DNA of 63,199 nucleotides, filler included, from Kipferlia bialata (Eukaryota), in NCBI GenBank assembly GCA_003568945.1. It is 4 parts of 4 records of this genome, joined end to end, with 100 filler letters (N's around TTAATTAATTAA, not from the genome) between each part and the next. Parts side by side here need not be neighbours in the genome. Positions count along the whole stretch, not along the records: positions 17,196 to 46,307 come from BDIP01000140.1; 3 more parts are not named here. The stretch is one strand, 5' to 3'. Position numbers and translations under genes: made by a program. The notes beneath the pieces were generated by a model, which was given only the letters and a program-made list of their open reading frames with translations, was not told the origin of the DNA and made no database searches. Below are positions 18,888 to 53,015 of the stretch, piece by piece; positions within the stretch are counted from its first letter, which is position 1, and each line of letters opens with the position of its first letter.

Positions 18888-18928
<41 letters not shown>

Positions 18929-20782: not shown

Positions 20783-20832
20783 TGGAAGTATGGAGGGCAA
20801 ACACACGAACCTTTTCATTCACGTCTTGAGTT

Positions 20833-21867: not shown

Positions 21868-22083
21868 GGGTCTGGCGGAATAGATTGTACCTGCGATTGT
21901 TGGTTTGTGAGTGTTTTGCTTATCTCATACTGTAGTACCTTCCACCGCCTTCTTGCAACAGCAATAGATTTCTTCTTGCAAAAAACAGGCAATTGTAGCA
22001 GCTACTCACAGAATGAAGCTTCGAGTCTATTTGTTGTTAATATGGAAAACAATGAAACAACAGTCTCCACCCGATGCCGCGTG

Positions 22084-23693
22084 TCACCGCCTGCCCCTGC
22101 CCTTGGAGGCCCCCTTGCCCTTGACGCCGGAGATGGTATTGGGGTTGATCTGGATATTAGTAAATATATCGGTCATCTCAGTCTACTCTGGGGGTTGACT
22201 TGTTATGCTATATATTGGGGGGTATGATGGGAGCGGTAGAACGGAGAGAAGGAGCACGCATGGACGTAAACATCGGTACATACGTATATATATATATATA
22301 CTTATATGCATACAACTGAGTCAGCTCATAGTGTTACATACTAGTACCTTCAGCACCCCCTTGGCATCCCACCGCCCCTCCTGAGCCTTGATACCCCTAC
22401 AGGTTAGAGAGAGACACGCAGAGAGAGAGAGACAGAGAGAGACAGGGCACTGATGGCACCCACCTGGTTCCAGCCACCAGTCGGCTGTTGGGTCCCTTTC
22501 TGTTGTTGTACTTGCCGGCAATGCGGGTGGACGTCTGCCGTCAGAGACTCCCCATATCAGTTACATACTACACAGAAGCCAACCGGAATCACGACACGAC
22601 CAGGGGTGGGATATATCAACACATCTGCATATGCAGACACCGAAGAGTACCTGGTGTACGTCCTCTCTGGTGATGTGTCCGTGGTAGGCCCCGTTCCTGA
22701 GCATGTCTCCCATGGGGGCAATCTGGGGTGGGCACACATGATGGATAATGTCACATGGAGTCTGGAGGTCATGTATATACACCAGTACCTTTGCCTTCCC
22801 CTCCGAGTCCCTGACCACATGGGTGAGACCCATCTCCATGGCACGCTGGTCCCTGGGGGGGAGAGGGAGAGAGAGAGAGAAAGAGAGAGATAGAGAGGGA
22901 GATGAGCCAGGGAGGGTGCCAGGCATGTGCCGCACCTTCTCTTTGCCTTCTTCTTCTCGGCCTGCTGCATCCCCTGCCACATCCGCAGCGGACACTGCTC
23001 CCTCTTAGCATCCCTCGCGCCAAGAAGAATCAGTTTCCGCTTCTGGGCAGCCTTTAGCTCCTAGAAGTGAGAAGAACCATCACATACATCATGTGACGGA
23101 TGCTATATATAATTAATACATATCAGGGACGTGGCAGTCCATAAATTCTAGGCCGCCACCTGCTTCTCTGCCTTTGTGAGATTGTGTCTCTTCTCCCTGA
23201 GCAGGTCTATGGCCACGTCCTCTACACCCTGGGGGTTGGGGAGGTACTAGGCATAGTATTATACATATGTAATAACACTACATAACATCCTCTGAATATG
23301 GGACAGCATCAGACCCAGATCTAATGGAGACACACCTGCTTGTTGGCGGCATCCTCAAACTCTTCCCGCTGTCTCGACTCCTTGTAGGCCCGCCGGTCGT
23401 CCTTCACCTGATGTCAATGTCAAGGACACGATGCGAAGGATACTCCATAGACAGGATGTCCATGAGATCTAGTTATACCCACTATACTCTCTAGACCATA
23501 TCACGCCCACACCAACTAGTACTGCACTCTCTCCTTGTACCTTCTTCCTGGCAGCCCTGTCCTCATTGCGCAGTGTGTCGTCAATGAACGCTGGCTTGGT
23601 AACAGATGCATTGTGGCCCGAGCGCTTCTTCCGCTGCGTGAATGCAAGCAGAGCGCTCTGGTCAAAAACAGCTGGGGGACCAGCTTTGTCCAT
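22084..23693 (-). CDS. Basic protein, possibly Faf1/DUF4602 (C1orf131)-like SSU processome factor, multi-exon
   Basis: Reads MDKAGPPAVFDQ..., QKRKLILLGARDAK (cf. LGAKPPK), and C-terminal GRWDAKGVLKINPNTISGVKGKGASKGRGRR* (cf. GKFkgGxLxlsxxdI). Family call is tentative; the gene itself is well supported. Confidence 0.5.
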
Positions 23694-23756
23694 CTAGAAG
23701 CCGTCAGTCGTGAGTATATGTGTTACTACCTGCGTGATGACAAATAGAGATGCGGG

Positions 23757-23783
23757 CACGCAATGCGTGACGCATGGTGCGCA
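23757..23783. promoter_or_regulatory. Overlapping GC-rich palindromes in the divergent promoter upstream of CKS1
   Basis: CACGCA-A-TGCGTG (23757-23769), ATGCGT-G-ACGCAT (23763-23775) and TGCGCA (23778-23783). Confidence 0.4.
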
Positions 23784-23849
23784 ACCCTTTTTTCACTTCT
23801 ATTTTGAAAGCTCTCTCGGCGGCTTTTGATTCTTCTCCTTCAGCCTATC

Positions 23850-28680: not shown

Positions 28681-31600
28681 TTACATGTGGGACCAGTCCA
28701 GCGCCGCCTGGTAGATCACATTGGGCTCAGGCGGCATCACTATGGGGGCGTTGTATGTGCTGCCAGAGAATGCGGCATCATCGAAGGGCTTGTTATCCAA
28801 CACTGCATTTGTAGACCTCTGGTAGCTAATGGCCATCCGAGGTTCGTTGGCCACTTGGCCATCCCAAACCTCGTAACACGTTCCAATGTAACCAAACAAC
28901 CGGTTATTGAGACCGTCTGTGGTACACTGGCCACTCTGATCGTAGCTATCATTGCTGGGAAGGCACCCGGGTGCAATGGTGAAGAACATGTCTCCACTCT
29001 CACAGGACACATCGGGTGCCTCGGGCCAGTCTGCTGGCTCACTGACCGCCACCCAGGTATCCATGCCCTGGGTCAGCTGGGCCTCACCCCCTGACACAGC
29101 AAGCAGAGTCTCTAGCACCCTCTCGGCCGACAGTCCCTAGGGTGAGTCAACAGCATTGAATTTCAAATACAATGTATATTATGGAAAAACCATATGCCAC
29201 CCACCGGAATGGCCGGCAGCCAGGCGGTCGCGGTGGCGGAGGTGTCGAGGGTACCACTGTCGAAGGTGAACACCGAGGCCAGGGACTGGACTGATGTCCC
29301 GTGGGTGAGGTAGGTCGGTAGCTGGATGAAGCTCTCTCTGTTCTCCGCCACAGGTGACATACGGACACGGCGGGTCCAGGCAACAACCTTGACATCAGGG
29401 AGAACACTAGAGACTAGAGAGGTGTACTATCTTACTACAGTTGAGTGATCTTGGTGACTAGCATACCTCTGGAATACCGCCGTCTGCATAGTCGGGGTAG
29501 TCCATCCGGTTGGCACTGGTGCTGTGGGCTGTCTCGAGGAGGATCGAGCCCCCGCTTGACTTGGAGTCAGTGGTCACCCGGAAGGGGCTGATGATGACGT
29601 GCCCCCCCTCCTCACGAGGGTCGGAGGAGGAGTAGATATCAGAGCTTGGAGACTCGTAGAAGCTGCTGCTGGAGATCATGACGTTTCCTGAGTAGTCCCA
29701 GAGAGAATCAACCCCGAGACCTAGCCCATCGTCGTGGACCCCAGTGAACCTGTCCACCTCAATGAGGGACCCAATAGCATAGTCCTCAGACGAAGTCGGG
29801 GCGCCTGTCCTTACCCTGCCTGCATCCACCACGTGGACTGCCCGGCCAGTCCCAGTGGCCCCTAGAGAGGTTGCATCGGAGGCTGTGTTGGCCCCGAAGT
29901 AGTGGGTGTCATAGGTGGGAGAAACGGTACGGGATGTGTCTACGTATGGGCTGGAGGCGAGGTACGAGTCCGGTGTGTCCTCAACCCCGACGGTGACACT
30001 GTTGGCATTGAGACTCAGGTGAAGGGTGGATACAGAGTCGACGGAAACAGTGGAACTAGCACTGACATCAATCGTCACCTGGTGTCAAAAACAAAAGTGA
30101 GACTCAATTCACTGGGCGTTCCAAACAGTAGATACTAAAACACGGCTGACAATCATAAACCATACCGATACTCCCCACCTCTGTGTCGGCTCCCCCGTCC
30201 ACCACGCCCAGGACCAGGGAATCTGTGGTCAAGGTCAGGGCAGAAGCCGACTCCAACACCAGTGTGGTCCCATCGGTGGAAACAGATACACTGCCAGACG
30301 TCTGACTCCCCGAGTGTGATGAGCCAACCCTGACAGCGCCACCGGCCTCCAGCGCAATGTCACTTCCATCCATACCGACAACACTACCAACAAGGCCCAG
30401 GTCCGCGCCGCTGGTGAAATCCAGGCCATTGGCTGCAGTGATGGTAACATCGCTTCCACTCGTCTCGACGTTGAGAAGGTCGCCTGTGGAATCGGACCTG
30501 ATCTCCAGCGACTCCACAGAGATGTTGCCCCCGTTGGCAGGGTCGCATCCAAACCTCACCGCGCCTGTCGAACCTCGGCACACACCCGCAGTGGGGACGC
30601 AGTTGTTGGCGTCCAGTGTGATGGTATTGGCGTAGAGATGCGCCATCCCGTCGGCTTGGATGACAACATTCCTCGCAGTCGTCTCGTAGGTGGACATGTT
30701 GCTCTGGACCTTAAAGTCGATGTTGCTCAAGTTGGAATCAAAGAATCCCATACGAAGGGTGGACGCCACAGGCGTATGAGGAAGCTCCCCCAATACATCC
30801 CGGTACTCAATTGAGAGGGTATCCTCGATATCCAGAGATGCCACCGAGACCCCAGTACCCGAGCCCTCCACCGCAACCGCAGAGGCCGCACTCAACGAGG
30901 CGCCATCTGTGGTGTCTACAAGCACAGCATCCTGAGTGACCTGCAGAACCAGGTTGGAAGAACCCGTGTTGTATACAGCCAGGGGGTCAATGTCAGCATC
31001 AGTGCCAGAGACCTGTGTGAGCGGTGCGAACAAAGACAAAGACAAAGAAGCGTGCCCGTTATGTGACACACAGTATGCATTCATACCTTCACTCCTCCAT
31101 CGGTGATGCCAGTGGTGGTTGCCGGGGTGTATCCAGTTTGGGAGTCGGTGTATGTGATGGCAGTGGAACCGTCGAGCAGGATCTCCTCATTGACCACGAC
31201 AACGGGGGCATCCAGCACAACCTGGTGTCACAGGGTGGGAGGTCGCAGCCCAAAGTCTACCCGTAAACCCCTAGAACAGAAATAGTCAATGATGGAATAC
31301 TCGTTCAGACACACACCTGACCGCTGCTCTTCTGGACGGAGACAACGTCACTATTAGCATCGGCCCCCTCACTACGGATGGTGAGGGTACTGGTAGGTGT
31401 CTGGGAACCAATAGCAGCAGTCACATCGGCTGGGTGAGAGATCACTCACTAAAGCATACCACCATATTCCAGTGTTACCATCGTCTACACTTACCTCCAT
31501 CATGTGACAAGTTGAGGAACCCTCCGAGCGCATCACCAAATAACATGCTGCCCTCGGTTCGAAGCTCAAGCAGGTCGGAGTCCATGTCTGGTCATGAGAG

Positions 31601-34600
31601 ATGAGTGACACACTGCATAAAGACCCAATCCGAAAGAAGACCAACTTGTCAGGGAAAAGTATCGGCAACAGCCACCACAACAGAGCTCAAGTACCTGTGG
31701 GTCCTATGGGAGACAGGATCTTAATGGAACCAGTGTTACCAACACCACTTACGGCACCAGGAGTGAGAACAACGTCACCACCAGCGGCACTGATAGAGTC
31801 TCCGCCGGTGAGAGCAACCGACCCACCATCCCGACCGGAACCACCAGTGCTGCCGCCACCTGAGTGAGACACATCAACCAACAAAGAGGTCATACATATA
31901 TATCTATATATATATATACCATCCTCCATGGCCACCATTGGTACCAACCCTCAAGTATACATGTATACCACCCCACCTGCAACGGTGATGGCCCCCCCAT
32001 TAAGGTCATACCCCGCATGGCCCTCGAAGGCAATGTCTGCGGCATCACGGTCCTCCCGAGAGGTGTTGTCCTCGAGGGTGATGGTGACCTCTCTGCCCGT
32101 TGGGTCGTAGCTGAAGAGCATGTCGTTCTCGGTCATGTAGAGGCTGGCACTCGGGGAGACAGTGACTGGGTGAGAGATGATATATACTAGGAGATACGAG
32201 TGTGATACGAACCAGCAAAGTCTCCGAATGTGGGCGCCAGAAGAACGGAATCAAACTCGGGAACCAGCACATCAGGATCTGGGAACCCAGTCAGGGTCAC
32301 ACTTGACGTGGCAATACCCGAAGCACCCTCCACTGTGAGGTCCTCAACTGTAACACTCCCGTTGATACTGACCGTGGTGGCCGACGAGGTGGCGTCCATT
32401 ACAATGCTGAGAGTATCGGAGCTGACCGACAGGGTGGGCGAGTCAGTGATCGACTCTACGATGAACTGGGGTTAGATAGAGTGTCTCATGTCCCCTCTGC
32501 TATCGAATTACCTCGTGCCCTGCCTCGTCTACATCAACGACCAGGTCATCCACACCAAGGGCCCCCTCAGAGGTCAGGTCTCCTGAGACGTTGAGCCCAA
32601 AGGATCCGGCACTTGTCTTCTCGACGGTCAAGAGACCTGGGAGTCACCGATTGCAGAGGAGTGAACCAACAGAGACCCAACATCGGACATACCTGCAGTG
32701 GCGTGGAGCATTCCGTCACCGATGATGAGGGGGACAGCCGCTGGAAGCTCCACCTGGCTGGATATGGCAACGTTACCAGCAAATGTGGTATCCTGTGTTA
32801 GATCTCGAGCCGATATCAACAGCGATGATGCAATGATACACGTACCGTGCCGTGCTCCACTTCTGTGGTGTACTGGAGCACATCTACCCACCCACCCCCG
32901 CCATCTGAGAGGGTGAGGGACCCCGCCTTCATTGAGTTGCTGGCGACGGTACCTGCCTCAACGTACAGGTCAGTGTCGACAGTGACGTCAAAACTGATCT
33001 GGGGTGGGAACACACACGAAATGAAGTGGGTAAAACATAGACATATCACTGCTTACAGGAGAACCCTACCTCGGTGGCCCCCTGTACCGTTGTCGCCTCG
33101 TTACAGGACAAGGTGGTGGTGCCAAAGGTATCGACCCCTAGGGCAGCCCTGTCAGCTCCAATGATGACATTGCCGGTCACACCCCCATCAGCGGCCTTGC
33201 CTCCGAGTACAAAGACATCACCGGCAACAGTGGTGGACCCGCTATCGAGACCACTCCTGGCCAGCACATACACATCTCCACCCTCAAACTTAGAGTTCAG
33301 GGACTGGCCTTCGACACTGGGGTGAGGGCTCCAAAGAGACTGACGATATACTAGATATACTAGTATACTAGAAACACTCAAGCCAGACGTACATGACATC
33401 AATCTGGTCTGCCTCCAAAGACTGCCCCCCAATCGACAGTGAATAGGGGATGGGCAGAGGTGCGGTATCGGTGACATCCGCGTTATACTTGAGAACCGAA
33501 CTGACACCGAACCCAAGCTCGAGGGTATAGTCTGCACTGATAGTCTGGATATGAGCGAGGGTGGGTCATTACCAGACATGCTAATATATAAAAGTATATA
33601 ATCTCACCTCTGCCATCGTCAGACTCCCAGTCTCAGCTGCGTCAGCGGTGACACTGCCGCTGAAGGTGGCCGTCGTACCCTCCATGGCTCCAGGGATGGA
33701 CACAAGACCAGAGCTGGCACTCGGGACACAAGACCCGGAACAAGGAGCCTCAAGTACAATGTCGCCAACAACACAAGAGAGACCCGAACACGTGCCACTC
33801 TGGTGTGAACTTGGATTCTGCTGATGTGTATAGAACACCAATGGCTAAGATGGAGACAAAAGTAGGATAGAATCAGCTACGTATACTCACCACGATGTTG
33901 ATGTCTCCTGAAGCGGTACCGGCAGGTGCCGGATTGGCAGATGGTGCCTCGGAGGCAGGCGAACCAGACACGATGACTATGTCTTGGGTCAGAAACGTAG
34001 AGAACATACTAAAGAGTCACCTGAAAGTCGTTTCCATGTTTCCTGTATACACAACCATCACCCACCTCCTGCATCAGCCAGAGTGGCATCCTGGGCCTCC
34101 AGCACCAGACCCGTGGCTGTGACACCGGAGCCGAGAGGGCTGGAGTCGAAGCCCAGGCCAAACCGAGTGTCGAAGGTGCCTAGAAGGAGAGCATCCTCCT
34201 GGGTGAAGGCCCCAAGGACCGACGGATTGGCAGAGTCATATATCTCAAAGTCGCCAGCAATCTCAACGTCTGCTGAGATTGTAGCCGCAGCATCGATTTC
34301 TAAGTCATCACCGCCATATGTTGTGATCGTTGGGGTTGGGACGCCACCCACGTCAGGCACGGAGAACTCGACGGCATGTGAATGGGAAGAATCGTCAGAC
34401 ACATACAAGCTAGACACAACCTCGAGGGACACTCCTGCCTCGACCTCGATATCGTCAAACACAGACGGGAGAGGGACACTCGTGGCTGAGGCGACAATGA
34501 GCTCGTTGCCCAGGGCCTCGACAGTGACGGAGGGGGCTGAATTGTCGTATGTGGTCGCGAAGACTGCGACATCTGAATCATCCAGCACTGGAGTGAGGGG

Positions 34601-37600: not shown

Positions 37601-40600
37601 AGGGGTCGAGAGCAGGGCAGAGGACGGGGAGGCAGTCACAAGGGTGGACACAGCCAGGGAGTCCGTCTCGATAGAGGCCACGTCGACGTCCCCACCAGTG
37701 GAAACGGAAAGAGCAGCAAGAGAAAGTGTTGAAGAGACACCTGTCGTGGCGACAGATAGTACCGTTGAACCAGACGCGTCATCAACCGTGAGCCCAACCC
37801 CGTTGGTTGAGATGGACACGGGCCTGTCCACTGTGAGACGGGACGGGGTGTCGCTCGACGCAGACAGAGTCACGTCCGACACCTTGACAGTGGAATCAGC
37901 CACCAGAGGGGACGTCACTCCAAGAATCCCATCCGAAATCAGCTCCAGTGTGTCACCATCTTCAAGCGCAGCAATAACGACGTCGTTATTGCCGTCAAAG
38001 CGAGAGGCTGAAAGACGCTGGACTGGAGACGAAGGAACAGTGATGTCCTTGACAACAAACTCGCCAGCGTTCATCACGCCCTCAGTCTGGAGTGAGCAGA
38101 ATGAGACACAACCAAAGGATGAAGAAATAGAATCCAGACATACAAACCTTGAACTCTGAGGATTCAATCTGCCCCAGGAATTCAGCTGTGCCCGATACAC
38201 TGAGCCCAGCCTCGAGAACAGACTCCTCGTAGAAGGACACCTCAGTCACGCCAGAACTGTCCCCAACCTCTACAACAACAGAGGGTGAGCCGGGGACTGT
38301 ACTATCCACAACGGTGAGAAGGACATCTGTGTCCAGGCCCACCTGAACTGGGCCAGTCTTGAGGACGGAGACATCGCCACTATCCATAGCCTTGGACGCA
38401 GAGGAGACGGAGGTATTATCATTGATGGCCAGAGTGTCGGTGGATAGGTAGTTGCTACCAGTAACAGCAACATTGGAATCAAACTCGAAAGGAGTTGAGG
38501 TCGTTGTAAACGAGGCAGTGGCGGAAGCTGTCGACACAGCGAGAACAGAGTCAACCTGGAGGTCGGGCGCATCCACCTCACCACCAACGACCAGGTTGCC
38601 CACTGCGACATCTCCCACAAGAGAGATCTCGGCAGCTGACACAACAACTCCCCCGTCCACAAAAGAGTCACTGGAGCCAGATTGCAGAACCAGACCGTTG
38701 CTGACCTTTGGAGACAAAGCCGCGGGGTTCAGATCATCTGTGTCTACAAGGGAGAGGGCTCCGCCAACGGAGATGGCACCGACCTCAACGGCGTCTGCAT
38801 CTAGGGACACGACCTCCATGTCACTCTGCACCAGCACAGACCCCTCGGCACACCCAGAGGAGGAGCACTCGGCAGAGAGAATCACAACGCCACTCTGGAT
38901 ATCACCCATTCCGGCCTGAGGTGAACAGGATGAGACGACACGGGGGGGGTTAACCAAAACTGAATCACCCTATAAACTATTAGAACGTACCACAAGCTCG
39001 ATCGCTCCCCCGGTACTGCCAACATCGGTTGTGGTCTGACCCATAACATGCACCAGAGTGGCTGGACCGGAGGAGATGCTTATTCGACTAATCTCTGTTC
39101 CAGACACAGTGGTATCTGCCCCAACAGTGACACCAATGGAAGACAGTGACGACATGGCAAGACTGTCGTCAGAAAATGAAGTGGGTAGTGGATAATGAGT
39201 AGACCACCAACGATGACCGAAGAACATACCTGCCCTCTACGGTGACCGAAGCCGGTAATGCTGCAGTTCCAACAGTGGCGGCAGATACGTCAGCAAGAGC
39301 TGCCACCAGGTCAGTATCGACCTCAATGTCGGAGTCCAACACAAGGCTTGACACATCAAGAGCATCAGAGGAATCAGAAAGAGCGCCAAGAGAAACAGAC
39401 ACGCTGGCAGACGTGGTACCGACGTTGTACTCGCCGACATATGTCGCCACTGGTAGCAAAAGGTTACCCGTGGGTGAGAGGACCATGTCATCAGCCGGGG
39501 CGAGGGAGACGTTGGCCGAGGAGGTGATGCGGTCAGTTGTGGCCTTGGTGTTTGCTACAGCAGACGTACTGATGAGGGCACCAGTGAGATTGGTGTCCTT
39601 GAATAGTGCCCCGTCTGAATCCACAACAATGGCTGTTGCATGCGTAATGGATACAGAGACATCAACGTCTGACAGGACTCCTTCCTCGACTACTAAAGGA
39701 ACTACAACACTAGCAACTCCCGCTGATTGACATCCGGCACAAGTAGGGTTGCCAAGAACAACGTCCCCGTCAGAACATCCGCTACCGGTGCAAGACCCTC
39801 CGGAAAAGACAACTGCCCCACCAGAGTCGGTACCAACTCCAGCAGATACCTCCACCTCACCGCCAACACCAAGATTACGGTCACCACCAACAAAGGAGGT
39901 ATCACGTCCGAGACTCTCTCCATATGCCAGGCCACTGTCAGAGAGAAGAATGCCGGCGGTACTCAGGTACTCTGAGTTCCCAACCTCCACACTCCGCAAC
40001 TCCAAAGTTCCTGTCACAGTCAAAGCCCCAGTTGAAACAGTGGCAGCACCGCTGTCAACCACAACCTCAACGGCAGCGAGACTGTCACTGTGGGAAACAA
40101 CAAGCTCATCATCTGTAAGGGATATCGCTCCAGTGCTGATCACACCAGCATCCAACGGAAGTGCAGGCACGTCAGCAGAGGATATGGAGACGGGGTCGGA
40201 TACTGATATAGCGCCAGCAGCTGAGCCGACAGTAAACCCTGAAGAGAACTCGATGTCAAGCTGTTCTCCGTGTGACAAGACCGAGAGAGAGTCTCCTAGC
40301 ACATGGGCAGTGCTAGACTTGTAATGGTGGCTGTCACCAGGTGAGGCCAGGGAGACATCTCCTGAGGAATGGGACACCGTCAGAACAGCAGCAGAGTCAT
40401 CTACGATCTCTACGACGATGGCCTCTAGCGTAGCACTAGCCTCGAGTGTGTCACTGCCCAACCCACTGGATACAGACAGGCCCTCGGTAGCAAGAGCAAG
40501 GGACTCAAGTACAATGGTACCAGACGCACACCCAGCCGTAGTGCACTCAGCTGTGACCACCACGTCTCCCGACTGTCCCATGGCCTCCATGCTCTGTCCG

Positions 40601-43600
40601 GCACTCACATAGAGGTCTCCCCCGGTCACACCAAGGCCAGAGGTGATGTCCAGAGATCCTCCCTTGTGTGTGGACGACCTCTGAGCAGCGACAAGAAGAC
40701 CAACAGTGGAAGAACCCATATCTGCATCGGATACGCCAATGGCGTAGTCTGACGACAACGAGACCGCGTCTACAGAAATGGAAGTGGAAACCTCGACGGA
40801 GTCTGCAACCAGAGCACTGCCTGCATCACCAACAACGACGAGGGGGGCAGAGAGAACAATCTCACTCACGTCAGCAATAAGAGACGTGTTCAGGGTTGGC
40901 GTCTCAATATCAGTGGAAGCCATCGACACAGCACTGGTGGTCCCGTCCACCTCTACTGACTCAGAGGTGGCCCCAACGGAAGTTACCCCAGAGTCGTCGA
41001 TGACGATAGTTGCAGTCCCTCCTGGTGACTGTGTCACACCCACAGCACCACTCGCCTCCAGAGTGATGCAAACTGAGTCCGTGAACGCAACGGCACTTGA
41101 AGAAGAACCCTGGATTGAGTCTCCCAGAGTCGTAGCGACCTCAAGCTCCCCATCCACAGACACAGTACCATCGGAGGAGACGATGCTGAGCGAAGACCCG
41201 TTCAATGTGGCGTGGGTAGTGTAAGTGAGAGAGACCTCCGGTGACCCTGCCTCAGTGACAATCAACTCACTGGAAGACAACAGAGTGGCATTCAATGTGT
41301 CAGATGTCACAGCACCCGTGAACTCTGCAGCTGCAGCCTCCACAGCACTCTCGATGGCAACATCACCCCCTGTAAATGAAACAGAGCCTGCAGCAAGACC
41401 GGAGTAGGTGAGAAGGAGTGGGACACCACCCTCAATCTGCACATCTCCTCCCTGGGTGTTTCCCTCTCCTCCTGTGAGAATAATGTTCCCGCCTCCGGAA
41501 GCGGCATCCAAACCGCTAACAGTGAAGGTATCGTCATCTGAGTCCGTGGCGTGGTAGAGAGTGGCCTCGAGCACACGGACGTCTCCGAATGCGGCAGTGG
41601 TGGCGACCAGAGACCCACTGTCCTCGAAGGAGAGAGAGGAGACACTTGTGTCCTCCAGTGTCAAAGCATCCGCAAACACCACAGAGTGACTCGAGGATGA
41701 CGGAGAGACGGAGAGGGTGTCATCTCCCGAGGAGTAACTGATCCCATACCCGTTAGAGGAGTCAGAGACGTTGACAACCATTGCCATGTGTGATCCAGAG
41801 ACCTCCACACTTCCTGTGTTATCGACGGAGTCGAGAGTGGCAGGGCCTGCAACCTCTAGAGCTCCCTCAATGATCACATCACCGGCGGCATCCACATCAC
41901 TCTCTGCAATCACAGTTCCCGATACATAGCCAGAGCTACACTCAGGACACTCGGCCGACAGAATGACATCTCCCACCTGGCCAACCCCCTCCTGTGACCC
42001 ACCCATGAGGACGGCGTCGGCACCAGTGATCTCACCTGATTGTGAGATGTCATAGGGGAACACCATAGTGAGACTGATTGGTATGACAAAGAGACCGACG
42101 TACCTGCTCCACCCCTGAGGATCACATCGCCGGCTGGGATGAGACCACTGGCTGAGCCCTGGCCCTGTATGACATAGGCCACAGGAGAGGCAGAGGCGAT
42201 GGGCGTGATTCCACCGGCTCCGAGAGTGGTAGTCTCAACCGTGAAGGTGTCGGTGACAATACCCCCGGTGAGGTGGATATCGGTAGATGCCACAGCCCCT
42301 GTTACGGAGAGTGTGTCAGCTGTGAGAGTGGAAGCAGCGACGCCGCTGGTAGAGGCTTCCAGTGAGTTTCCAGAAGATCCTGGAACCACAAGGGAACCTG
42401 TGGCTACAGTATCCAGAGCACCTAAACCAGCAACAGAGGCATCCGCCAGCAGGTACGCAGAGTCCAGCTCTGTCTGGGGTGAGTGTGGGGCCCTGAAGGA
42501 TGTACAGGACGTTATCAATCATACATACGACACCAACCTCAGACATGAATGACACCACTCCAGTGGACCCACTCCCAGATCCAGCGGCAACAATCAGAGA
42601 GCCACCACTGTTAGTTCCATCGCCTCCTAACAAATACACTGAGCCCCCATCAGAAGACCCAGTCACAGAGAGAGACTCACTGCCCGCGGGAGAGACAGAT
42701 GCACTTTCAATGGAGTCAACGGTCAGAGACTGTACCATGGCATCACCAGCGATATGCAAGACTCCAAGACTGGTCTCGCCGGACACCGCGAGGGAGCCTG
42801 GAATGGATACACCGGTGGATGCCACTTCAGTGACCGACGATCCATCCACTACCAGGGAGGCACCGGTGTCTGCCCAAAATTCTACTTGCGATGTCTCAAT
42901 GGAGAATGAGGTGGGGGAAGAGACTATCGAGGTCTCAAGTCCAACGCCTAAACTTGCTCCGACCTCAACTGACTGTGCTGCTGCAAGGCTTGAGCCTGTA
43001 ACACTCTCGGCGGCAGCAACGTCGGCGGTAGCGCTCCCTGCGGTCAAGGAGGACCCATCTCCCACAGTGACATCAGTGGCGACAAAGAGGATGTCTGCGG
43101 TCCCAGAGGAAGGCCCGATGACGCCGCTGGAGATGGAGAGGGCCTGGGAGAGGGGGCCAGACACAGCAGCAGACGTAGCATCGACAGAGTCCAGAGAGAC
43201 AGTGGAGGAAGAAAGAGCTCCAGCTGTCAGGCCTCCGTCGACCTCTAACTCCTCATGGACAATAACAGTCCCAGAGGTGCCTGTGCCTGGGGTGAAGGGA
43301 TACCAGTGGAGGCCAAATAGAAATGACACCGTACAAAACCAACTACCCAGGCACACATACACTCACCATCTCCTGCCACATCTAGTGTGATACTGCCTCT
43401 GCTACCGGTGCGACCGGTATACTCTCCAGGGGAGAGATACACAGTGCCTCCCATGCTGTATCCGGCGCCACCCTCCATGGATGCTGTGCCTCCAACCTGC
43501 CCCTCTGTGTCCGTGCCCTCCACCCCGATGGAGAGAGGCACGGGCGACCCAGACGACGTGGCGGAGAGACTCACGGTACTCTGAGTCACGGTGATGGCTC

Positions 43601-44721
43601 CCATAGTAATAGAGGACATTGTCCCAAGTGTCATCCCTCCAGGTGTAAGGTCTGTGGCGTCAACGGTTGACACAGACAGATCACCATTGACCACACTGTC
43701 GTCCGAAACTATACCCTCAGACCCCAGCACAAGAGAGGAGGTCTGGATCTCAGCAACACTCAGGGATGTAGCCAAAAGAGAGTCCACATCAGTGTCCGTT
43801 GACTCAACGATCCCGGCATAAACTGTAGTCCCTGAAAGTGAGGTCACGCTCAGGGGTTGAAGACATAGAAAGATACACCTCTGTGAATTGAACAAAAGAA
43901 AGGATCACAAGACAGAACTCGAGAAGAGAAAAGGGAAAGTCACAAGGGTACCTGTCATGACCAGAGGTGCCTCTCCGTCCACAACAAACTCCACTGAGGC
44001 ACTGGTATCAATCATGTCCCCTCCCTCGATGTAGAAGACGGCAGAGGTGGTCTTGGTCACCCCACCCACTCCAGAGTTCTCTCCAGAACCTTGGTCTGAG
44101 TACCTCCCTGTACCAGGAGTGCCATAACTGCCAATACCACCACTGACACTCTCTGTCTCCTTGGCACTGAAGGCAGAGGCACTAGCAGGATCGTTGGATA
44201 CAGTAAATCGACCATTGACAGTCATTGCACCGCTAACAGCAATACTATCAGACACCTCCATCGACTCAGACTCTACACTGCTGAAGGACGGCACCACTGA
44301 AGAACCGTCGCTGGTCACCATGTACCTGAGAGTCAGGAATATCATACGAGAGACTCTAAAATTAGCATCTCTCACCCTGTTGCCTCGTCAATTAGGATCA
44401 TAGAATCTGCCTCAATGGATCCAGCTGTGTCCCCACCAGACGATATTCCCGTAAAGTATGCGTCCTTCACCCATACTGCACAGGGGATGTACACAATGAG
44501 AGCTACAATCTGGAGGATCACAAGTAGAGTGAGCCAGAGCTTTCCAACTCCGGTAACCTCCTTACGCTTGATGTGACTGGGACCTAGCACATCTGACTCT
44601 TTCCCAGGATCATTACCCGGAGCTTGTGGGTGAGAGAATGATCGGAGAGGGCTAAAAGAGTGCAGAGAATCAGAACTAGAGGAAAACAACAATCTATACA
44701 ACCTGAAGGGGAGGAACTCAT
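28681..44721 (-). CDS. Giant (estimated >4,000 aa) type II membrane-anchored, acidic S/T/G/V/A/D-rich fibre/beta-solenoid-like surface protein, multi-exon
   Basis: ATG 44721 (MSSSPS/APGNDPGK...) is followed by KRKE and one TM segment (LWLTLLVILQIVALIVYIPCAVWV). About 16 kb of consecutive minus-strand ORFs of uniform composition follow (e.g. 965, 375, 348, 326, 291 aa), separated by short GT-AG introns and carrying recurring GGxVxIxGG modules. Ends ...QAALDWSHM* at 28681; an extra last exon cannot be excluded. Confidence 0.85.
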
Positions 44722-44967
44722 CCCCAAAACCTAACAGAGCAAGTCTCTGTGCCACAGCTGATCAAACTGACGGCAGCTGGACTATTACTGTCTTGGATCG
44801 GCTATCCTTCCGCCAGCTGAGAGGAAGGGTCCGTTCTCCAAAAAACTGAGGCCATCTCACTTCGCTATTTCTATAGTACCAAGCTCAGATAGCTTGACCT
44901 AAGCTCGGGTAGTAGCTGTGTCTGTCGTTTCCTGTCGTTTTAGAACGTACTGGGTCGATAGAGACGG

Positions 44968-46218
44968 ATGCCGCCTCCGGTGAGTACCCATATTTGGTTT
45001 TGGCCCATAACCTATCATTTTTGCGATTGTTAGGGACTGTGCGCCGGCATCGGAGTATCAAGTATACTCATTAGTAGAGTTTGGTTCGAGGATATAGTCG
45101 AATTCTGCTTACATCAGGTGTCTAAGCCACAGACGCTTCCTGCCCTAGATGGCGGGAAGCCCGGCTCAGGGCCTAAGAAACCCCCCTCACGCCCTCCACG
45201 GACAAAGCCTACTGCCAGTATGGGTCCCAGGGCTCTACCCAATGTTGTCACCCCGGTTACAGTCGGATTTCCCGTGTCCCAGCCAATGGGTGGCGCTTTC
45301 CCAGGCCAGAGCTCCTTCAATGCCAGCCAGTCCCAATTCAACCAGAGCATGAGCCCAAATATGGGTATGGGAATGGGAATGGATCCAAGGAGGTGAGATA
45401 TAGTATTTATCTTTGAGTGTGTATACTACTTCTTGGTACTTTCCTTCTATTTTTGGCTCACAGCAGTACTATGGGCAGGTTTATTCCTCCAAGGAAGCAG
45501 TACACCAGCAAGGGTTGTGGACTCATCCTCACCATTGTACTGGTTGTGCAACTGTTGCTACTCCTACCTGTCGCTGGATGGGTGGTACGTCGGAGTATTG
45601 TACTTCATCCACAGTCCCACTGCCCTGTGACACATCTCCCTCACCCCAGTCCGTCGCCTACTTCAGTGGCACCCTTATGAACTCTGATCCCTCTGTCGAG
45701 GTGGACCAGACTGCCCTTGTCCAGATCAATGCCGAGACAGGATTCATGGTACGGCAACCTGCTCTTTGCCCCCATCCCTAATGTCGTCTCCTGGTCTCAC
45801 TGACAACAGGTCACTGCAGCTGGAGAGGAGGTGGTCCCCTCCTTTGAGGAGATCAGCACCTCTTCCATCAGTGTCGAGGAGGACCTCCAGGTATATACGG
45901 GCTCATACTGGTGCTATGTTATTTTTAAAATTTTTAGTTCTCACTGCGTTTCCCTTCTTCTCACAATAGGTTGGGGGAGATGTTGTGGTTTCCGGTGTGT
46001 TCACTGCCATGATCACCCCAAGAGAGAGCTCTAGCGGTACCAAGCAGGTGGGTGCCGCTGAGGTCGCCTCTGCTGGGGGCAAGGGAACTGGCAAGGGAAC
46101 TGGCAAGGGAGGGTACTCCTTCAGCTCTGGTAGTGGTACTGGAGAGGGTGGGAGTGGCCATGGGTCTAGTGGCTTGGGCCCCTCTGTCAGTGGAAAGGCC
46201 ACAGAGACGGAGTTCCAG
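44968..46218 (+). CDS. Paralog of the giant type II membrane protein (5' part; truncated by contig end)
   Basis: Reads MPPP/VSKPQ..., a Pro-rich cytosolic tail, TM LILTIVLVVQLLLLLPVAGW, then AYFSG...LVQINAETGFMVTAAGEEVVPSFEEISTSSISV. The latter aligns with AYFTG...MILIDEATGYMVTSDGSSVVPSFSSVESESMEV of the divergent gene. Confidence 0.8.
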
Positions 46219-46255
46219 GTGGGTTTGACATATTATATATCATGGTATATACAAA

Positions 46256-46307
<52 letters not shown>

Positions 46308-46407
46308 NNNNNNNNNNNNNNNNNNNNNNNNNNNNNNNNNNNNNNNNNNNNTTAATTAATTAANNNNNNNNNNNNNNNNNNNNNNNNNNNNNNNNNNNNN
46401 NNNNNNN
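46308..46407. other. Artificial contig-joining linker (N44-TTAATTAATTAA-N44)
   Basis: Same 100-nt six-frame-stop spacer. Confidence 0.95.
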
Positions 46408-46412
46408 GGGGG

Positions 46413-46459
<47 letters not shown>

Positions 46460-46659
46460 GAGTGAGAGAGAGATAGAGAAGTACAGAAACAAATGTGTAT
46501 AATACCTCAATGCAAGGACGGATGGGGGGGGGGAGGGAAGAAAAGAGATATACAACATACCTCAATGCCAGGATGGCCGGTCTGCAGCAGAAGAGACCCT
46601 CTTTATACATATATATATATATATATACTATATATGTATATGTATGTATATCTATCTAT

Positions 46660-49600
46660 ATATACCTCAGTGCCAGGATGGCTGGTCTGCAGCAGAAGAG
46701 ACCTAGTAACAGTACAGCACCAGGCAGAATGACAGCTAGGGTAAGTACATTATATGGGTGCATATACATATGTATATGCATATATGCATATATCATATAT
46801 ATATACCTACATATATATATATATACACACACCTGACTGTCTCTGGGGCATCTCTGCCATGCAGTACAGGCCTTGTCTAATATACACATACATATATACA
46901 ACTATATAGTATATATATATGTGTGTATGTATGTAAATATATACACACCTGACTGTCTCTGGGGCATGTCTGCCATGCAGTACAGGCCATGCTTAAAGGC
47001 ACCACAAGGGTATGCGACAGAGGGTGCAGGGCCCACTGTATATGATGCAATACACCCTATAACAGGCACCTCACTACCACTCTCAGTCACTCCAAGGGGG
47101 AGAGAGAGCAGGTATTCCATGCTCTCTGTATCAGTATCAAGAGCTAGTGATGTGTCAAGGTCTGAGAGGGTGGATAGAGCTAGGGCGTCCTCTCTCGCCC
47201 ACCAGAACTGGGCTAGACCCTCAGAAGAAGAGGGCGTTCTAGCTACAGCACCACCTGTACACATGTACAAAGAGTCACTGAGGCTACTTGGTAGAGGTGT
47301 GCAGCTTGTTCCGAACACCCCACCCATGTTGTGCAAGGGGGATAGTGCCACAGTGGTTGGGTTGTGGGGGGTGGAAGAGAGGAAGGTGCCAGGGGTGAGG
47401 GAGTTGCCATACACATCCACACCACCTAGCAGCAACATGCCACTCCCACTGCCTGGGGGGTAAGGTTAGAGTAGTATAGTTACATATAATGAAACAATGC
47501 ACATCATACACTATTTAGTGTCAACATGCCACTCCCACTGTCTAGGGGGTCAGACAGCAGTAATATTATCACAATATACTATATAAATGTTGTAATATAC
47601 TATATATACATATATATCTAATAGTAGACATCTAGCAGCATTCCACTACCACTGATGTTGGTGGGGTATATGGAATAGGAATGCATATTAGAATCCCTAC
47701 CTTGCACAGCATGCGTACTGGCCACCTCCTCACTATATAACAATCAATTCATATATACTTATATATGTATAATATCTACTATATATAGATATATACATAA
47801 TGTACTCTTCATCTAACCTTGCCCTGCACTCACACTGACCACCTCCTCACACTAAACATAATATACATATATATATACATACATATATACATTCCATATG
47901 TACCTTGTATAGCCTGTGCGCTAGCCACCTCCTCACTGTCAGATGCACTCTGTGTGGTGACACTGTTATGCCCGACACCCACACCATGCAAGAGAGCCAT
48001 GGAGGAGACACTATCACTGCTAGAGACACTCTCGTTGCTCCAGAGGGTCTCCGCAGCCTCCTCCCCGTACACTACGCGAGTTAGGGTGGATGTATAGGTA
48101 GTGACACCATCTACAGTGGATGATGTGTGGGAGAGGATGTGTGCAGACCCGGCAGAGGAAGTGGTTGCAACCACTACTCCCTCTCTGTCCTCAGAGTCTA
48201 GGGACACGCCCTGATATCAGTATCAGTATATACACATAATCTAATGCTGTAAGAGTAGCAACAATGATAATTACTACTATATACCTCCTCCCACACTGCT
48301 GTGGTGTCTGTTTCACTCAGTGTGAGCATAAGTATATAGATGAATAGGTACGTATACTTATATACAATCTCATATACCTCTTCCCACCCAGCTGTGGTGT
48401 CTGTGTCACTCAGTGTCAGGTAGTGCACTATGTTATCGGATAGCACAGTGGACACACCACCTGTAGTGAGATGAGATGCAAAGATTAATTAATGCATATT
48501 AATACTACATAATAGAAATATAGAGAACTTTGTTATCGGACAGCACAGTGGCAACACCACCTGAAGTCATGAATTGAACATAACATATCATTATATGTAT
48601 ATGTATTAGCTAATGTGTGAAATATAGTGCACTGTGTTATTGGATAGCACAGTGGCCACACAACCTAGGGTCAGATATAGAACGCTAGACGTATACATAT
48701 CTAAATAACTATGAGTAATAGAGTACATTCTACCTAGTATGTACTGTGACATGGAGCAGATAGGTAGTATATAGTACTGGTACCAGTCTGATGAAAGAAT
48801 GTGTGTGTTCACATACATACACACACATATACAATATACCTAGTGTGTACTGTGACATGGAGCAATTAGGCAGTGTATGTTATAGTACCTGCATTCATCT
48901 ACATACATATCTATAGTATATCTACACACACACATATATACAAGACTCTATATATATAACTATAGTGTACCTAGTGTGTACTGCGACATGGAGCACACAG
49001 GCAGTGTATAGTACTTGGTCTCTAATACCTTCATTCATAAACCTACACATTTATAAATGTGTGTATATATATAGTGTACCTAGTGTGTACTGAGACATGG
49101 AGCACACAGGCAGGTGGGAGTAGGTGGGGTCGGCAGAAGGGGCCACAGTCAGAAGAGCAGTGTCGCCTGGAAGTGAGATCAGAAAAATCTGGGACTCCTT
49201 GAGAATAGTTAAAACGTGCTACATACCTGTTATGGACAGCGTCACAATGAATGTCCTGTCTGTTGACGCTGTCCCAATAAAAATATGTATATAGGCGAAA
49301 ATATATACTGTACAAATACCTGTCACAGATAGTGTCACACTCACTGCCCTGTCTGATGGCTCTGTTCCCTCTGTACCTGAGGCATACTCATGGGCAGACA
49401 GACCAGTAGAGCTATGGTAAGGTTCACATATGCATATATTCACATAAGAGTAATATGTAAATTTATGTGCAGACAGACCAGTGGAGCTATAGTCAGATAT
49501 ACACACTATTGTATCAAACTCATATTTATTATGCATATGTGTCAAATGCATAACTCATGGGCAGACAGACCAGTGGACCATAGAGTTAGATATAAACAAT

Positions 49601-50683
49601 GTATAAGAATATTTGCAGATATATAGACATTAATACTCTACATACATGTATACATTTACTACAAATGACACGTACCCATCTGATAGGTGTAGATAGGCCC
49701 CACCCCCTGACGCCATACATGCACTGGTGCGAAGCAGGGTGTCTGAAGTCAGATATATACATATACTCATTTGTACACTATAAATCTGTGTATGTATAGA
49801 CAGTAACATATATGAGTATATATACATGCACTGGTGCCCAACAGGGTGTCTGAGGTTAGTAATATATATATATATGTACATAAGTATACATAAATACTTA
49901 TATGAGGCCAGACAGGCACTGGCCGTAGAAGAGTGTCTGAGGCAAGGTACCGAGAAGAGTTATAATGTACACATGCACTGATGTGATTATGGTATATGTA
50001 CACTCATAGGCCAGACAGGCAATGGTGCGCAACAGTGTTAATAGGGTAAGATAGTTCATATACTCCGCAGTCACATATACTAATACTCAATATCTACACC
50101 AAAGAACACACATTTACATTGATACAGTACCTGACTCCAGAGCACTACTGATGTCTGTGTATGTCTACAGTTCTGTCATATATATTCATACTCTATACTT
50201 GCATAAAAAATATATGCCATATGCATCTGGAGTATACTAATACTATTATGTACTATATACCTGCATCTAGGGCACTGTCAATGTCTGTGTCTGTCTGCAT
50301 GTCTGTCAGTTCAACCACTCCTCTGGTGCTGTTATAGGAGAGGGTGTACCTAGTATGAGACATAGAGAGAGTAACAAGCAGTGAGACATAAGGATGGAGA
50401 GAGAGAGAGAGAGATAGATAGTTCAACCACTCCTCTGGTGCTATTACAGGAGAGGGTATATCTGGTGTAAGAGGGAGGGAGAGAGAGAGGGAGGGAGAGA
50501 GGGAGAGAGAGGCAGAGAGAGGGGGGGGAGACAGAGAGAGAGATGTGGAGGGAAAGGAAGGGTCTACTTACACTAGAGACCACTCTACAACTCAATCATA
50601 TGTAAATATACTATACACTCACACTATGGGTTCTGCCTCTGTCCAGTCTGACATGGATGATATATGTATATATTATAATACAT

Positions 50684-50722
<39 letters not shown>

Positions 50723-52000
50723 ATACGTACACTATCGGTTCTGCCTCTGTCCAGTCTGACATGTCATGACATACATATATAATTGAGTACATATAGTCTT
50801 TAAACATACTCATATATACTATACTCATGTTTACTCACACTGTGGGTTCTGCCTCTGTCCAGTCTGCCATGGATGATGCACCATATGTGGTGGGGGTGCC
50901 TGGGGTCAGTATGGCATGTACATGAAGTCCATAGGGTCAAAATACTATTTATAGTGTGTTCCATGTTTGTACCTGGTGACTCCAGTCCCCCTATGACTAC
51001 TAGGTAGATACGGGCATACAGTGGCACACATACACTATGGGTGTATACAATTCATATTCATACAAGTATATACCGTGTATATATACATACCTGGTGCCTC
51101 TAGTCCACCGATGACTACTAGGTAGTGGGTGCCATCCACAGTGGCAACGGTAGATGAATGACCTATCCTAGAGGGTAAGAAGGGAGAGGGACAGACAGAC
51201 AGAGAGAGAAAGAAACCATCAACAGTGGCAACAGCTGAGGAGTGGCCTATTCTATGGAATTAGAGACAGAGGGGGAGAGGGAGGGAGATACCAACAGTGA
51301 CAACAGCAGATGAATGGCCTATTCTAGAGGGTAAGAAGGGAGAGAGAGAGACAGAGAGAGAAATAGAAGAGAGAGAGAGAGAGAGAAAGAGAAGCCATCA
51401 AGGGTGGCAACGGCTGATGAGTGGCCTACTCTATGGAATAAGAAGGGGGAAGGTGGAGACAGAGAGAGAGAGGTGGAGAAAGGGAGAGAGAGAGAAGTGA
51501 TCAACAGCTGAGGAGTGGTATATTCTATAGAGTAGGAAAGAGAGGGGGAGGGAGAGAGAGGGAGAGAGCAGGAGCTCACGAGTGTCTGATAAGTAAGCGG
51601 AGAGACGAAGAGGTAAAGGTGGTAGAGAGAGACCATAAAGGGAGGTAATAACTGAGGAGTGTCCATATAGGTTTCAAAAGTATTGAGCGTCCTATCCCCA
51701 AAGATTAGGACAGAGTGGGAAAAACATATGAAAAGCTACCTTGGTACTAGTGTATGCACTGCCTCCATCAGTCCCTCTGACATTGCCATGATATTATACA
51801 GATACTGTATAAGTATATATATATATACATCAATGAAATTATACATAAGTATATATATATATATACATTAATGGAATGAATGATTACCTGGGCACAAGTG
51901 TGTGCACGCTATCCATCAGTCCCTCTGACACTGCAGAGACATGACCAGCCAGGAGCAACACGCACAGACATAGACAGAGAGACCACATGGAAGGTAGCAT
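46660..52000 (-). CDS. Type I membrane protein with kelch-like beta-propeller ectodomain (3' end lost at contig end), multi-exon
   Basis: Signal peptide MLPSMWSLCLCLCVLLLAGHVSA. Kelch-like motifs IGHSSTVATVDGTHYLVVIGG, MLLLGGVD and LYMCTGG. TM-like AVILPGAVLLLGLFCC near 46700-46740. Confidence 0.6.
51130..51660 (-). repeat. Degenerate splice-acceptor echo array (~5 copies) in the kelch-like gene
   Basis: Units resembling CAGTGGCAAC(A/G)GCTGA(G/T)GAGTGGCCTATTCTA are separated by purine tracts. Confidence 0.7.
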
Positions 52001-53015
52001 CTCTATGGTGAGGGACATAGGAGTATATATGTATGTATAAGCCCATACATATACACCTAGCATACAGTGCAATATAACTATAGAGAGAGGGGGGGGGGGG
52101 GGAGAGACATCATGGAAGGCAAAATCACTGTGGTGAGGGGAGAGCTAACTCATTCACTGACATATACACAAGTATAATAGTCTACTCATAAACACATGCT
52201 CGCATGTATATATATACATATACATATAGAGAGAAGAGCACACGTTCACACTTAATACCATCATTCTGCCAGGATATATAGAGGGGAGAGTTGGGTGATG
52301 GGTGGATGGAGAGAGAGATACATCGTGGGAAAGACAAAGAGTATCATGGGGGACACATAATAATACCAGTCTCTCTCTATGTTTCTTTCTCCTTCAAAAC
52401 AAGCCCAAACACAGCAAACTGATAACAGTATCCAGTACCTGTTGTGATGTATCAAGCGGGCGAGCGCCTCCAACTGTAACCACTTGGGTTGTCAAACTGA
52501 AGGTCTACGTTTATAGAGAGTCAAGTGCAACCAATCAAACTTCTTGATTCGGAGTAATGCAAAATACCTCCGCACCCTTATGTTGAATCGTATCTGATGA
52601 CACTCACTGCAACACTATATTTACATCGTATCTTCTCAGAGTCGACAGACACTCTGCTAGGTATGGGCATGTCATCTTACCATCTGCCTTTGAGATGTGT
52701 TTCAATCTCTCTATGATATACCTCTAGACATAAGGGTTCAAGCCTCCAGGTCTGCTTCCCACACCTGTTGCTCACCCTTACTTCATATACCGCTGCTACT
52801 ACATGTATTTGGAAAGCAAGTCACTGATTTAGTTCTAACACGAGGTATACTGGTGCTAAGTTGTTAGAAGTCCCCCCCTCTCCCTCTGCTCCAACTCTGA
52901 TACAGTGCTTGTGGAAATATATTCACATTCTGGATTCTGTATGTATTAAATACCTATGCTTTTCAATGTGAGTCGGGGCATGCGTATCCAATACCCAGGT
53001 ATATACATAGAAGAT

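Follow-up and report, generated by a model that had tools for sequence, protein, structure and literature searches.

Two genes lie head to head in a 63,199-nt window of DNA from the free-living flagellate Kipferlia bialata. Gene 1 (deposited as KIPB_001080) is read from the minus strand, gene 2 from the plus strand. The question raised by this locus is whether, as a first-pass annotation of the sequence proposed, they encode a pair of giant membrane-anchored fibre proteins that act together. The analysis reported here identifies the product of gene 1 as a transcribed 439-kDa orphan, predicted to be membrane-anchored, which lies beside a paralog that shares only its membrane-proximal base. The reading that we favour, to which we give about an even chance, is that these are divergent, anciently duplicated genes whose N-terminally anchored, single-pass products project very long, acidic, beta-rich ectodomains as a surface coat or adhesive filament.

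Gene 1 is not visible as a single reading frame in genomic DNA. Under genetic code table 11, the minus strand between 28.7 and 44.8 kb is broken into many open reading frames (ORFs), the longest of which is 965 aa. Alternative codes (tables 1 and 6) were considered as the cause of these breaks and left the fragments unjoined; the breaks are introns. Splicing was followed in sequencing run X2, which shares its sample with X1, the likely source DNA run. The RNA label of X2 is a guess, and its spliced contigs are the reason for treating it as RNA. One spliced X2 contig of 13,399 nt follows the minus strand from 28490 to ~44586 (eight pieces listed). Of 47 joints in X2, 15 were listed, ten on the minus strand and five on the plus strand. 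All ten of the listed minus-strand joints have CT..AC ends, which are GT..AG on the coding strand, and skip 46-117 nt. DNA run X1 covers the ground of gene 1 without the splice joints seen in X2.

An exon model of gene 1, constrained by the listed joints and the X2 pieces, spans 16,041 nt and ends at a stop codon at 28681-28683. Together, the spliced contig and the model hold a 13.3-kb frame open across 39 introns. The exon content of the model agreed to within 3 nt with that implied by X2 depth in 21 of 27 bins. Of the six bins that did not agree, two are accounted for by untranslated region (UTR) or a neighbouring gene, one by alignment ambiguity at a joint and two by 9-nt errors; one is unexplained. 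The 9-nt mismatches were traced to the donor at 36819 and to intron 32692-32637, as in the deposit, and all eight record anchors agree with the exon lengths once both corrections are made. The 934-aa exon of the model is 100% identical to part of ‘hypothetical protein KIPB_001080 [Kipferlia bialata]’ (4,433 aa), and the translated model matches this protein throughout, apart from the first exon and one 3-aa stretch at which the deposit is right. With its first exon placed at ATG 44721, the model gives ~4,420 aa. At the other end of the gene, a contig from run X4 (another sample, from another study) has a poly-T loose end equivalent to a minus-strand poly(A) tail, so the poly(A) site lies ~200 nt beyond the stop codon. 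The single spliced contig and the match to KIPB_001080 demonstrate that the minus-strand ORFs are one gene, as had been proposed, and not several transcripts.

In bin 38786-39412, ~27 nt-equivalents of depth above the main transcript are unexplained. A further X2 contig lies partly within this bin, with a loose end before 38860, and may represent an alternative isoform, a chimeric contig or a paralogous transcript.

The plus-strand gene is also real. A separate X2 contig crosses five joints (44979/45118, 45392/45467, 45584/45650, 45748/45810 and 45890/45970), all of which are GT..AG after shifting, and extends 90 nt upstream of the first joint (44978), to ~44889. No ATG occurs upstream in 44889-44967, and ATG 44968 is the first in the RNA contig. 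The six visible exons encode 278 aa in a frame that is still open at the contig end; a GT donor follows the last of them at 46219, and the contig ends within the presumed intron. The description of the pair as ‘giant’ is thus borne out for gene 1 alone, gene 2 being cut after 278 aa by the contig end at 46307. The two genes are divergent, as first described, with 5’ ends at most 250 bp apart, and spliced contigs of both are present in the one RNA-like run. The depths of the X2 contigs (350 and 410) were left out of any expression ranking, as contig depth can neither rank nor correlate expression.

A YTNAY branch-point-like motif (CTCAC, CTGAC or CTAAC) was observed 1-8 nt before the AG in 14 of the 15 RNA-supported introns (e.g. 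45650, 45810, 32512 and 31495). These intron 3’ ends resemble the fused branch-point/acceptor motif of Giardia and Trichomonas introns. The available part of the K. bialata genome paper gives a count of 124,912 GU-AG introns (PMC5874029).

The similarity between the two products is confined to one region. BLASTP of the 278 aa of gene 2 against gene 1 returned one colinear match (52/157 identities, 33%; 54% positives; E 1e-11) covering the basic patch, the transmembrane (TM) helix and the region that follows, and every other match had an E value of at least 0.35. Compared without the TM helix, the juxtamembrane stalks gave a Smith-Waterman score of 170 versus 49.8 +/- 8.4 (maximum 83) in 1000 shuffles (z 14), and versus a maximum of 91 across 59 other windows of gene 1. 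The shared stalk reported in the first-pass annotation is thus significant, and the two genes are paralogs. The order of elements is common to both products: a tail, a basic patch, a TM helix and a module of ~120 aa. A Gly-rich linker follows the stalk in each, after which gene 1 runs on for another 4,200 aa. Within the shared part, the introns of the two genes sit at different positions, suggesting that the duplication is old. Gene 2 aside, no sequence resembling gene 1 was found elsewhere in the window.

Hydropathy analysis supports an N-terminal membrane anchor in each product. In KIPB_001080, the Kyte-Doolittle score exceeds 1.9 over only one sustained segment (window starts 44-54, with one isolated window at 1147), which places the hydrophobic segment at residues ~46-72. 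The TM helix of gene 2 is preceded by a 112-aa Pro/Gly/Met-rich tail and a basic patch, RFIPPRKQYTSK. The C-terminus of KIPB_001080 (...YQAALDWSHM) has no hydrophobic or glycosylphosphatidylinositol (GPI)-like end. In prediction, then, the features of a type II single-pass protein were all found, namely an N-terminal internal hydrophobic segment with basic residues before it, no cleavable signal and no C-terminal anchor. The tail, basic patch and single TM helix that had been described for each product were borne out and are consistent with a type II anchor of predicted orientation.

The product of gene 1 is very acidic and nearly free of Lys and Arg, as first noted, with 574 Asp and Glu residues against 89 Lys and Arg (2% Lys+Arg) and an isoelectric point (pI) of 4.05. 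Its main constituents are Ser (15%), Val (12%), Gly (12%), Thr (10%), Ala (10%), Asp (8%) and Leu (8%); Pro makes up 2.9%, and the 28 Cys residues (0.6%) include two CXXC motifs. The C-terminal, membrane-distal 379 aa, which are less unusual in composition than the remainder, may form a globular tip.

Short glycine-containing motifs are strongly enriched in the ectodomain. GD[VIL]3 occurs 11 times in KIPB_001080 versus 0.6 expected, and GG[ST][VIL].[VIL] seven times versus 0.9 expected. The autocorrelation of hydrophobic residues is positive at lag 2 (+0.06) and negative at lags 3 (-0.18) and 4 (-0.13). A Gly-rich, Cys-capped module (…GGDL.V.AG……SGDVV[LV].AEC..GC.SG.[IV]…) has strong copies at residues 735-806, 1203-1273 and 1718-1786, which are 468 and 512 residues apart. 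In a profile seeded by these three, two weaker, non-seed copies at residues 1478-1532 and 3062-3125 scored 6.2 and 6.3 bits, versus a maximum of 4.4 (1,635 domains, 200 shuffles).

Searches for relatives of gene 1 returned only the protein itself. An exhaustive phmmer search with the 934-aa exon against 1.84 billion representatives gave one match, to itself. No Pfam family matched the whole of KIPB_001080 at E<=1, none of 13 exons reached a gathering score, and no PDB sequence matched KIPB_001080 at E<=1. An NCBIfam match was rejected as spurious (14 bits versus a cutoff of 480). Word-index searching with the 934-aa exon among longer proteins (7,983 candidates) recovered only KIPB_001080. Among shorter proteins, 0 of 7,992 candidates were confirmed for residues 4050-4433 and 0 of 3,278 for residues 30-240, the latter with limited reach, as gene 2 was also not returned. 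In two metagenome scans, 0 of 95 and 0 of 595 pattern matches were confirmed. An Atlas search with the 934-aa exon was uninformative: recognition was low (1282), and the clusters returned, at 0.91, were all eukaryotic and unnamed. A literature search under KIPB_001080 did not find the name, searches on Kipferlia brought up nothing about the protein, and the available part of the K. bialata genome paper does not mention it (PMC5874029). By sequence, the product of gene 1 is an orphan among the families and collections searched.

The region between the genes was described in the first-pass annotation as a 246-bp spacer carrying a direct repeat. The distance between ATG 44721 and ATG 44968 is indeed 246 bp, but at least 44889-44967 of it is transcribed, and the repeat falls within the 5’UTR of gene 2. 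This leaves no more than 167 bp untranscribed with a gene 1 start at 44721, and none at all with the exon of the deposit. The segment 44722-44888 is likely a shared divergent promoter. The direct repeat itself is present as two copies of CTGTCGTTT, the only matches in the 63-kb window (0.11 expected; two or more in 0 of 100 shuffles). Its location in the 5’UTR rules it out as an upstream promoter element of gene 2. An 11-nt inverted repeat with 91% complementarity (CCAAAACCTAA / TTTGGTTTTGG, 44724-44734 and 44993-45003) brackets the intergenic region and may be due to chance.

The start of gene 1, which had been placed at ATG 44721, was not confirmed. By arithmetic on record coordinates, the X2 contig begins inside exon 2, and the frame of this exon contains no ATG before the TM helix, so the start codon must come from an upstream exon. 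With ATG 44721, the first exon would be 19 nt long and the intron after it 80 nt. ATG 45008, chosen in the deposit, lies in an exon that overlaps in antisense with exon 1 and intron 1 of gene 2. Both candidates have weak donors: with a position weight matrix (43 introns, both genes), the 44721 exon scored 4.14 and the 45008 exon 3.25, versus at least 5.32 for 42 of 43 others. The donor of the deposited first exon has A at -1, where 42 of the 43 other donors of both genes have G. No better combination of ATG and donor was found upstream. The two known X2 contigs account for all of the bin depth, so neither candidate exon is covered by a contig of this run. Coordinates of the features are collected in the table.

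Features of the divergent gene pair and of the contig that carries it (positions count along the whole window)
Feature	Position	Strand	Basis or description
Gene 1 coding span (KIPB_001080)	28681..44721	-	40 exons, 39 introns of 46-120 nt; splice-aware model and RNA contig
Gene 1 3’UTR and poly(A) site	28478..28680	-	X2 contig end at 28490; X4 poly-T loose end before 28478
Gene 1 C-terminal (membrane-distal) 379 aa	28684..29967	-	Composition in 400-aa blocks: more Lys/Arg, Trp, Tyr and Pro; 4 Cys
Gly-rich Cys-capped module, clearest copy (GGSLDI..GGDLYV..SGDVVVTAEC..GC.SGTIVLES)	40480..40692	-	Profile
Cys-capped module, other strong copies	~41881-42166, 38799-39080	-	Profile
Gene 1 juxtamembrane stalk module common with gene 2	44058..44467	-	BLASTP and Smith-Waterman; includes intron 44326-44375
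Gene 1 single TM helix, predicted (LWLTLLVILQIVALIVYIPCAVWV)	44468..44539	-	Kyte-Doolittle; basic patch HIKRKEVTGVGK before helix
Likely shared divergent promoter	44722..44888		Between the predicted ATG of gene 1 and the first base of the gene 2 RNA contig
Alternative first coding exon of gene 1, deposited model (MGQNQIWVLTGGGIRLYRP)	44951..45008	-	ATG 45008, 58 nt, then 328-nt intron
Direct repeat CTGTCGTTT-C-CTGTCGTTT	44922..44940	+	Copies at 44922-44930 and 44932-44940, inside gene 2 5’UTR
Gene 2, visible part	44889..46218	+	5’UTR from ~44889, ATG 44968, six exons; five GT..AG joints in X2
Gene 2 exons	44968-44979, 45118-45392, 45467-45584, 45650-45748, 45810-45890, 45970-46218	+	X2 joints and translation
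Gene 2 TM helix, predicted (CGLILTIVLVVQLLLLLPVAGWV)	45516..45584	+	Kyte-Doolittle maximum 2.76 at residue 113; aligns with gene 1 TM helix
Contig end and linker	46257..46407		51-nt poly-C at 46257-46307, then N44-TTAATTAATTAA-N44; another contig beyond

The window is composite. Three N44-TTAATTAATTAA-N44 linkers (17096-17195, 46308-46407 and 61205-61304) join at least four separate contigs, so features that cross linkers or contig ends are not contiguous in the organism. Homopolymers occur at contig ends (poly-C at 46257-46307 and poly-G from 46408), and a plain gap of 93 N lies at 53359-53451. The contigs past 46408 are AT-richer (38-46% GC) and contain many TA/GA microsatellites. Outside both genes (1-17095, 17196-28400 and 46408-63199), none of the 65 stop-to-stop ORFs of at least 110 aa matched a Pfam family at E<=0.001, so the neighbourhood supplies no context. 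Mean word depth in DNA run X1 reaches 13,848 in bin 27500-28126, with many tiny contigs, versus ~525 across gene 1. Short tandem arrays are present just downstream of gene 1 at 27848-27896, 28090-28119 and 28136-28189. Together these suggest a high-copy or repeat element at 27500-28190. Another X2 contig, on 27500-28116, is probably that of a neighbouring gene. In practical terms, users of these data should note that the window consists of unrelated contigs, that gene 2 is truncated by the assembly and that the deposited start of gene 1 is doubtful.

Several explanations compete for the gene pair. The artificial linkers in the window and the homopolymers at contig ends could point to an assembly chimera, contaminant DNA or a non-coding region with chance frames. 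However, both genes lie inside a single contig (17196-46307; 29,112 bases), two contigs from an independent Logan assembly of DNA run X1 span 28160-46244 with two base differences, and spliced RNA keeps the long frame intact. An artefact is extremely improbable and is effectively refuted by the RNA contig, the exon model and the identity to the deposited protein. A different proposal accepts one giant gene only and sees in gene 2 a copy of the gene 1 5’ module that is short or in decay, or else a small membrane protein that shares the stalk. It draws on the 278 aa that are visible, on the Gly-rich, low-complexity stretch after the stalk, which contains a 12-nt tandem array at 46078-46110, and on the lack of other gene 1-like sequence in the window. 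We consider it improbable, since the frame of gene 2 is open through six exons and five verified introns, the last visible exon leads into a GT donor and a presumed intron in which the contig ends, and gene 1 has its own Gly-rich linker at the same place, followed by thousands of residues more.

The remaining alternatives concern what the proteins do. Rather than a standing coat, they might be cargo of a secretory or extrusive organelle, matrix of a flagellar vane or feeding groove, or cyst or extracellular matrix, released by cleavage near the module, with the N-terminal segment acting as a signal-anchor during export only. The extreme acidity and paired Cys residues would fit secreted matrix proteins equally well, and a conserved membrane-proximal module beside a hypervariable giant ectodomain is the layout of proteins processed near the membrane, by analogy with those carrying SEA and GPS domains. 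No cleavage motif and, by Pfam, no SEA or GPS domain was detected. We place this explanation on the unlikely side. The first-pass annotation suggested co-expressed subunits of a hetero-oligomeric surface fibre. Spelled out, the products would be obligate partners that co-assemble via the shared juxtamembrane module, their stoichiometry kept by a shared promoter as in collagen IV pairs. The closeness of the 5’ ends of these divergent paralogs, the restriction of conservation to the very module, next to the membrane, at which chains would register, and the presence of both spliced contigs in the same RNA-like run are all in keeping with such an arrangement. Inverted duplicates, however, often lie head to head without co-assembly, and a single pair gives no statistics. 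The module is only 33% identical and its intron positions differ. There is no collagen-like or recognisable oligomerisation motif either, G-X-Y runs not exceeding four triplets and no Pfam family being matched. We consider co-assembly of this kind improbable. Its broadest extension would be a lineage-specific eukaryotic class of surface fibres, in which type II-anchored, non-repetitive, hyper-acidic beta-filaments of at least 0.1 micrometre register via a private juxtamembrane module and form a heteromer from a head-to-head pair, a protist counterpart of collagen IV logic with an unrelated fold; we regard this as quite improbable.

The favoured reading, of anciently duplicated genes for anchored single-pass proteins with long beta-rich ectodomains, would work as follows. 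The basic residues before the sole hydrophobic segment, together with the absence of a C-terminal hydrophobic or GPI-like end, suggest an N-in/C-out (type II) topology. The ectodomain would be a filament, as judged from its 25% Ser+Thr, 12% Val, 12% Gly and 2.9% Pro, its anti-helical periodicity, its GD[VIL]3 and GG[ST][VIL]x[VIL] rungs and its paired-Cys caps. A solenoid of the size of the gene 1 product is estimated to be ~0.1 micrometre long at ~20 residues per 0.48-nm rung. The conserved juxtamembrane module may serve as a common base for anchoring, processing or assembly, while any binding specificity would reside in the distal parts, which diverge and in gene 1 include the C-terminal 379 aa. 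The simplest account of the head-to-head layout would be an inverted duplication of long standing that leaves both genes under one short control region; it need not imply co-assembly.

A number of observations weigh against this reading. Beyond its visible part, gene 2 may be short or may differ from gene 1, and the cytosolic tail of gene 1 is uncertain because its initiation exon is unverified. The alternating-hydrophobic beta motifs ascribed to the gene 1 product survive only in part: strict five-residue H.H.H alternation is not enriched (45 versus 51.9 +/- 8.0 in shuffles), but short alternations of Ser/Thr with Val/Ile/Leu are enriched 2-3 fold ([VIL]S[VIL]S, 17 versus 6.0 expected). No internal repeats were detected by self-BLASTP at E<=1e-3, nor DNA tandem arrays, the sole array reported by Tandem Repeats Finder (TRF) in the coding sequence of gene 1 being at 39124-39163 with a score of 50. 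Without repeats, the product of gene 1 is unlike most known giant adhesins and mucins. AlphaFold2 modelled the 934-aa exon with ~39 short strands and one helix, but at a predicted local distance difference test (pLDDT) score of 38.0 and a predicted template modelling (pTM) score of 0.32; a single-sequence model of the C-terminal 379 aa was unreliable (pLDDT 30.5). The term ‘fibre’ is thus inferred from composition and from low-confidence all-beta models, and any fibre fold of the gene 1 product, be it a beta-solenoid or a right-handed parallel beta-helix, is putative. Finally, the repertoire of surface-protein homologues in K. bialata is small according to the available passages of the genome paper, which concern searches for variant-specific surface proteins (VSPs), cysteine-rich proteins (CRPs) and BspA only (PMC5874029).

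Free-living relatives of Giardia are said, in the part of the genome paper available, to have a poor surface-protein repertoire (PMC5874029). If the gene 1 product is a surface filament, it would be a candidate for coating or prey capture in a bacterivorous anaerobic flagellate and would constitute a new sequence family of beta-rich fibres. A giant anchored surface-filament protein is a familiar kind of object; the sequence of this one has no match in the family libraries or sequence collections searched.

Among related organisms, the surface proteins available for comparison are the VSPs of Giardia, the CRPs of Spironucleus and BspA of Trichomonas. For K. bialata, the available part of the genome paper reports just three homologues of BspA, and none of VSPs or CRPs (PMC5874029). 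Unlike VSPs and CRPs, the gene 1 product is poor in Cys, with only two CXXC motifs, and it has no Pfam match to VSP or to BspA-type leucine-rich repeats.

The giant acidic adhesins of bacteria that are made up of beta-helix or beta-roll rungs (filamentous haemagglutinin, Chlamydia Pmp and RTX adhesins) resemble the gene 1 product in being very large, acidic and poor in Lys and Arg, with short Gly-x-[VIL] rungs (AGGDLILQAG, GDVVI), and a filament projecting from the cell, as in these adhesins, is likely for it. Neither 13 of its exons nor the whole protein matched the Pfam Fil_haemagg, Chlam_PMP, PATR, pectate-lyase or RTX families, however. GG.G.D, as found in RTX adhesins, occurs once versus 0.6 expected, and the full GGxGxDxUx motif does not occur. 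Unlike bacterial adhesins, gene 1 is a eukaryotic gene of 40 exons with a TM anchor. The giant or fibrous type II proteins of animals (teneurins, collagens XIII and XVII and class A scavenger receptors) have the layout predicted for the gene 1 product: their N-terminal tail is cytosolic, a single TM helix follows, and the C-terminal ectodomain is very long. They differ in their YD/RHS, EGF, collagen or coiled-coil domains, none of which was detected here by Pfam, and phmmer and PDB searches revealed no sequence relationship.

Membrane-tethered mucins of the MUC1, MUC4 and MUC16 type are alike in having a giant Ser/Thr-rich ectodomain, one TM helix, a conserved membrane-proximal module and a fast-evolving distal part, and a surface-coat function such as theirs is plausible for the gene 1 product. 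Unlike in these mucins, the predicted anchor is N-terminal (type II) rather than C-terminal, Pro amounts to only 2.9%, and there are no Pro/Thr/Ser tandem repeats (self-BLASTP and TRF) and no SEA domain (Pfam). The richness in Val, Gly, Asp and Leu suggests a folded beta structure and not a mucin bottle-brush.

Collagen IV chains are encoded by genes paired head to head. Like COL4A1/COL4A2, the K. bialata genes are paralogs that point away from each other across a short shared region and encode chains that are predicted to be long and extracellular. In contrast to collagen IV, the K. bialata products contain no Gly-X-Y triple helix (the longest G-X-Y run, of four triplets, occurs twice in gene 1, and gene 2 has none) and no collagen or NC1 domain (zero Pfam families). 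They are also predicted to be membrane-anchored rather than secreted, and the organism is a unicellular metamonad, as the first-pass annotation had supposed. The comparison with collagen IV is therefore an analogy of gene arrangement only, with no sequence feature in common. The K. bialata genes make a simple case in which to ask whether, outside animals, a head-to-head arrangement of paralogs means that their products co-assemble.

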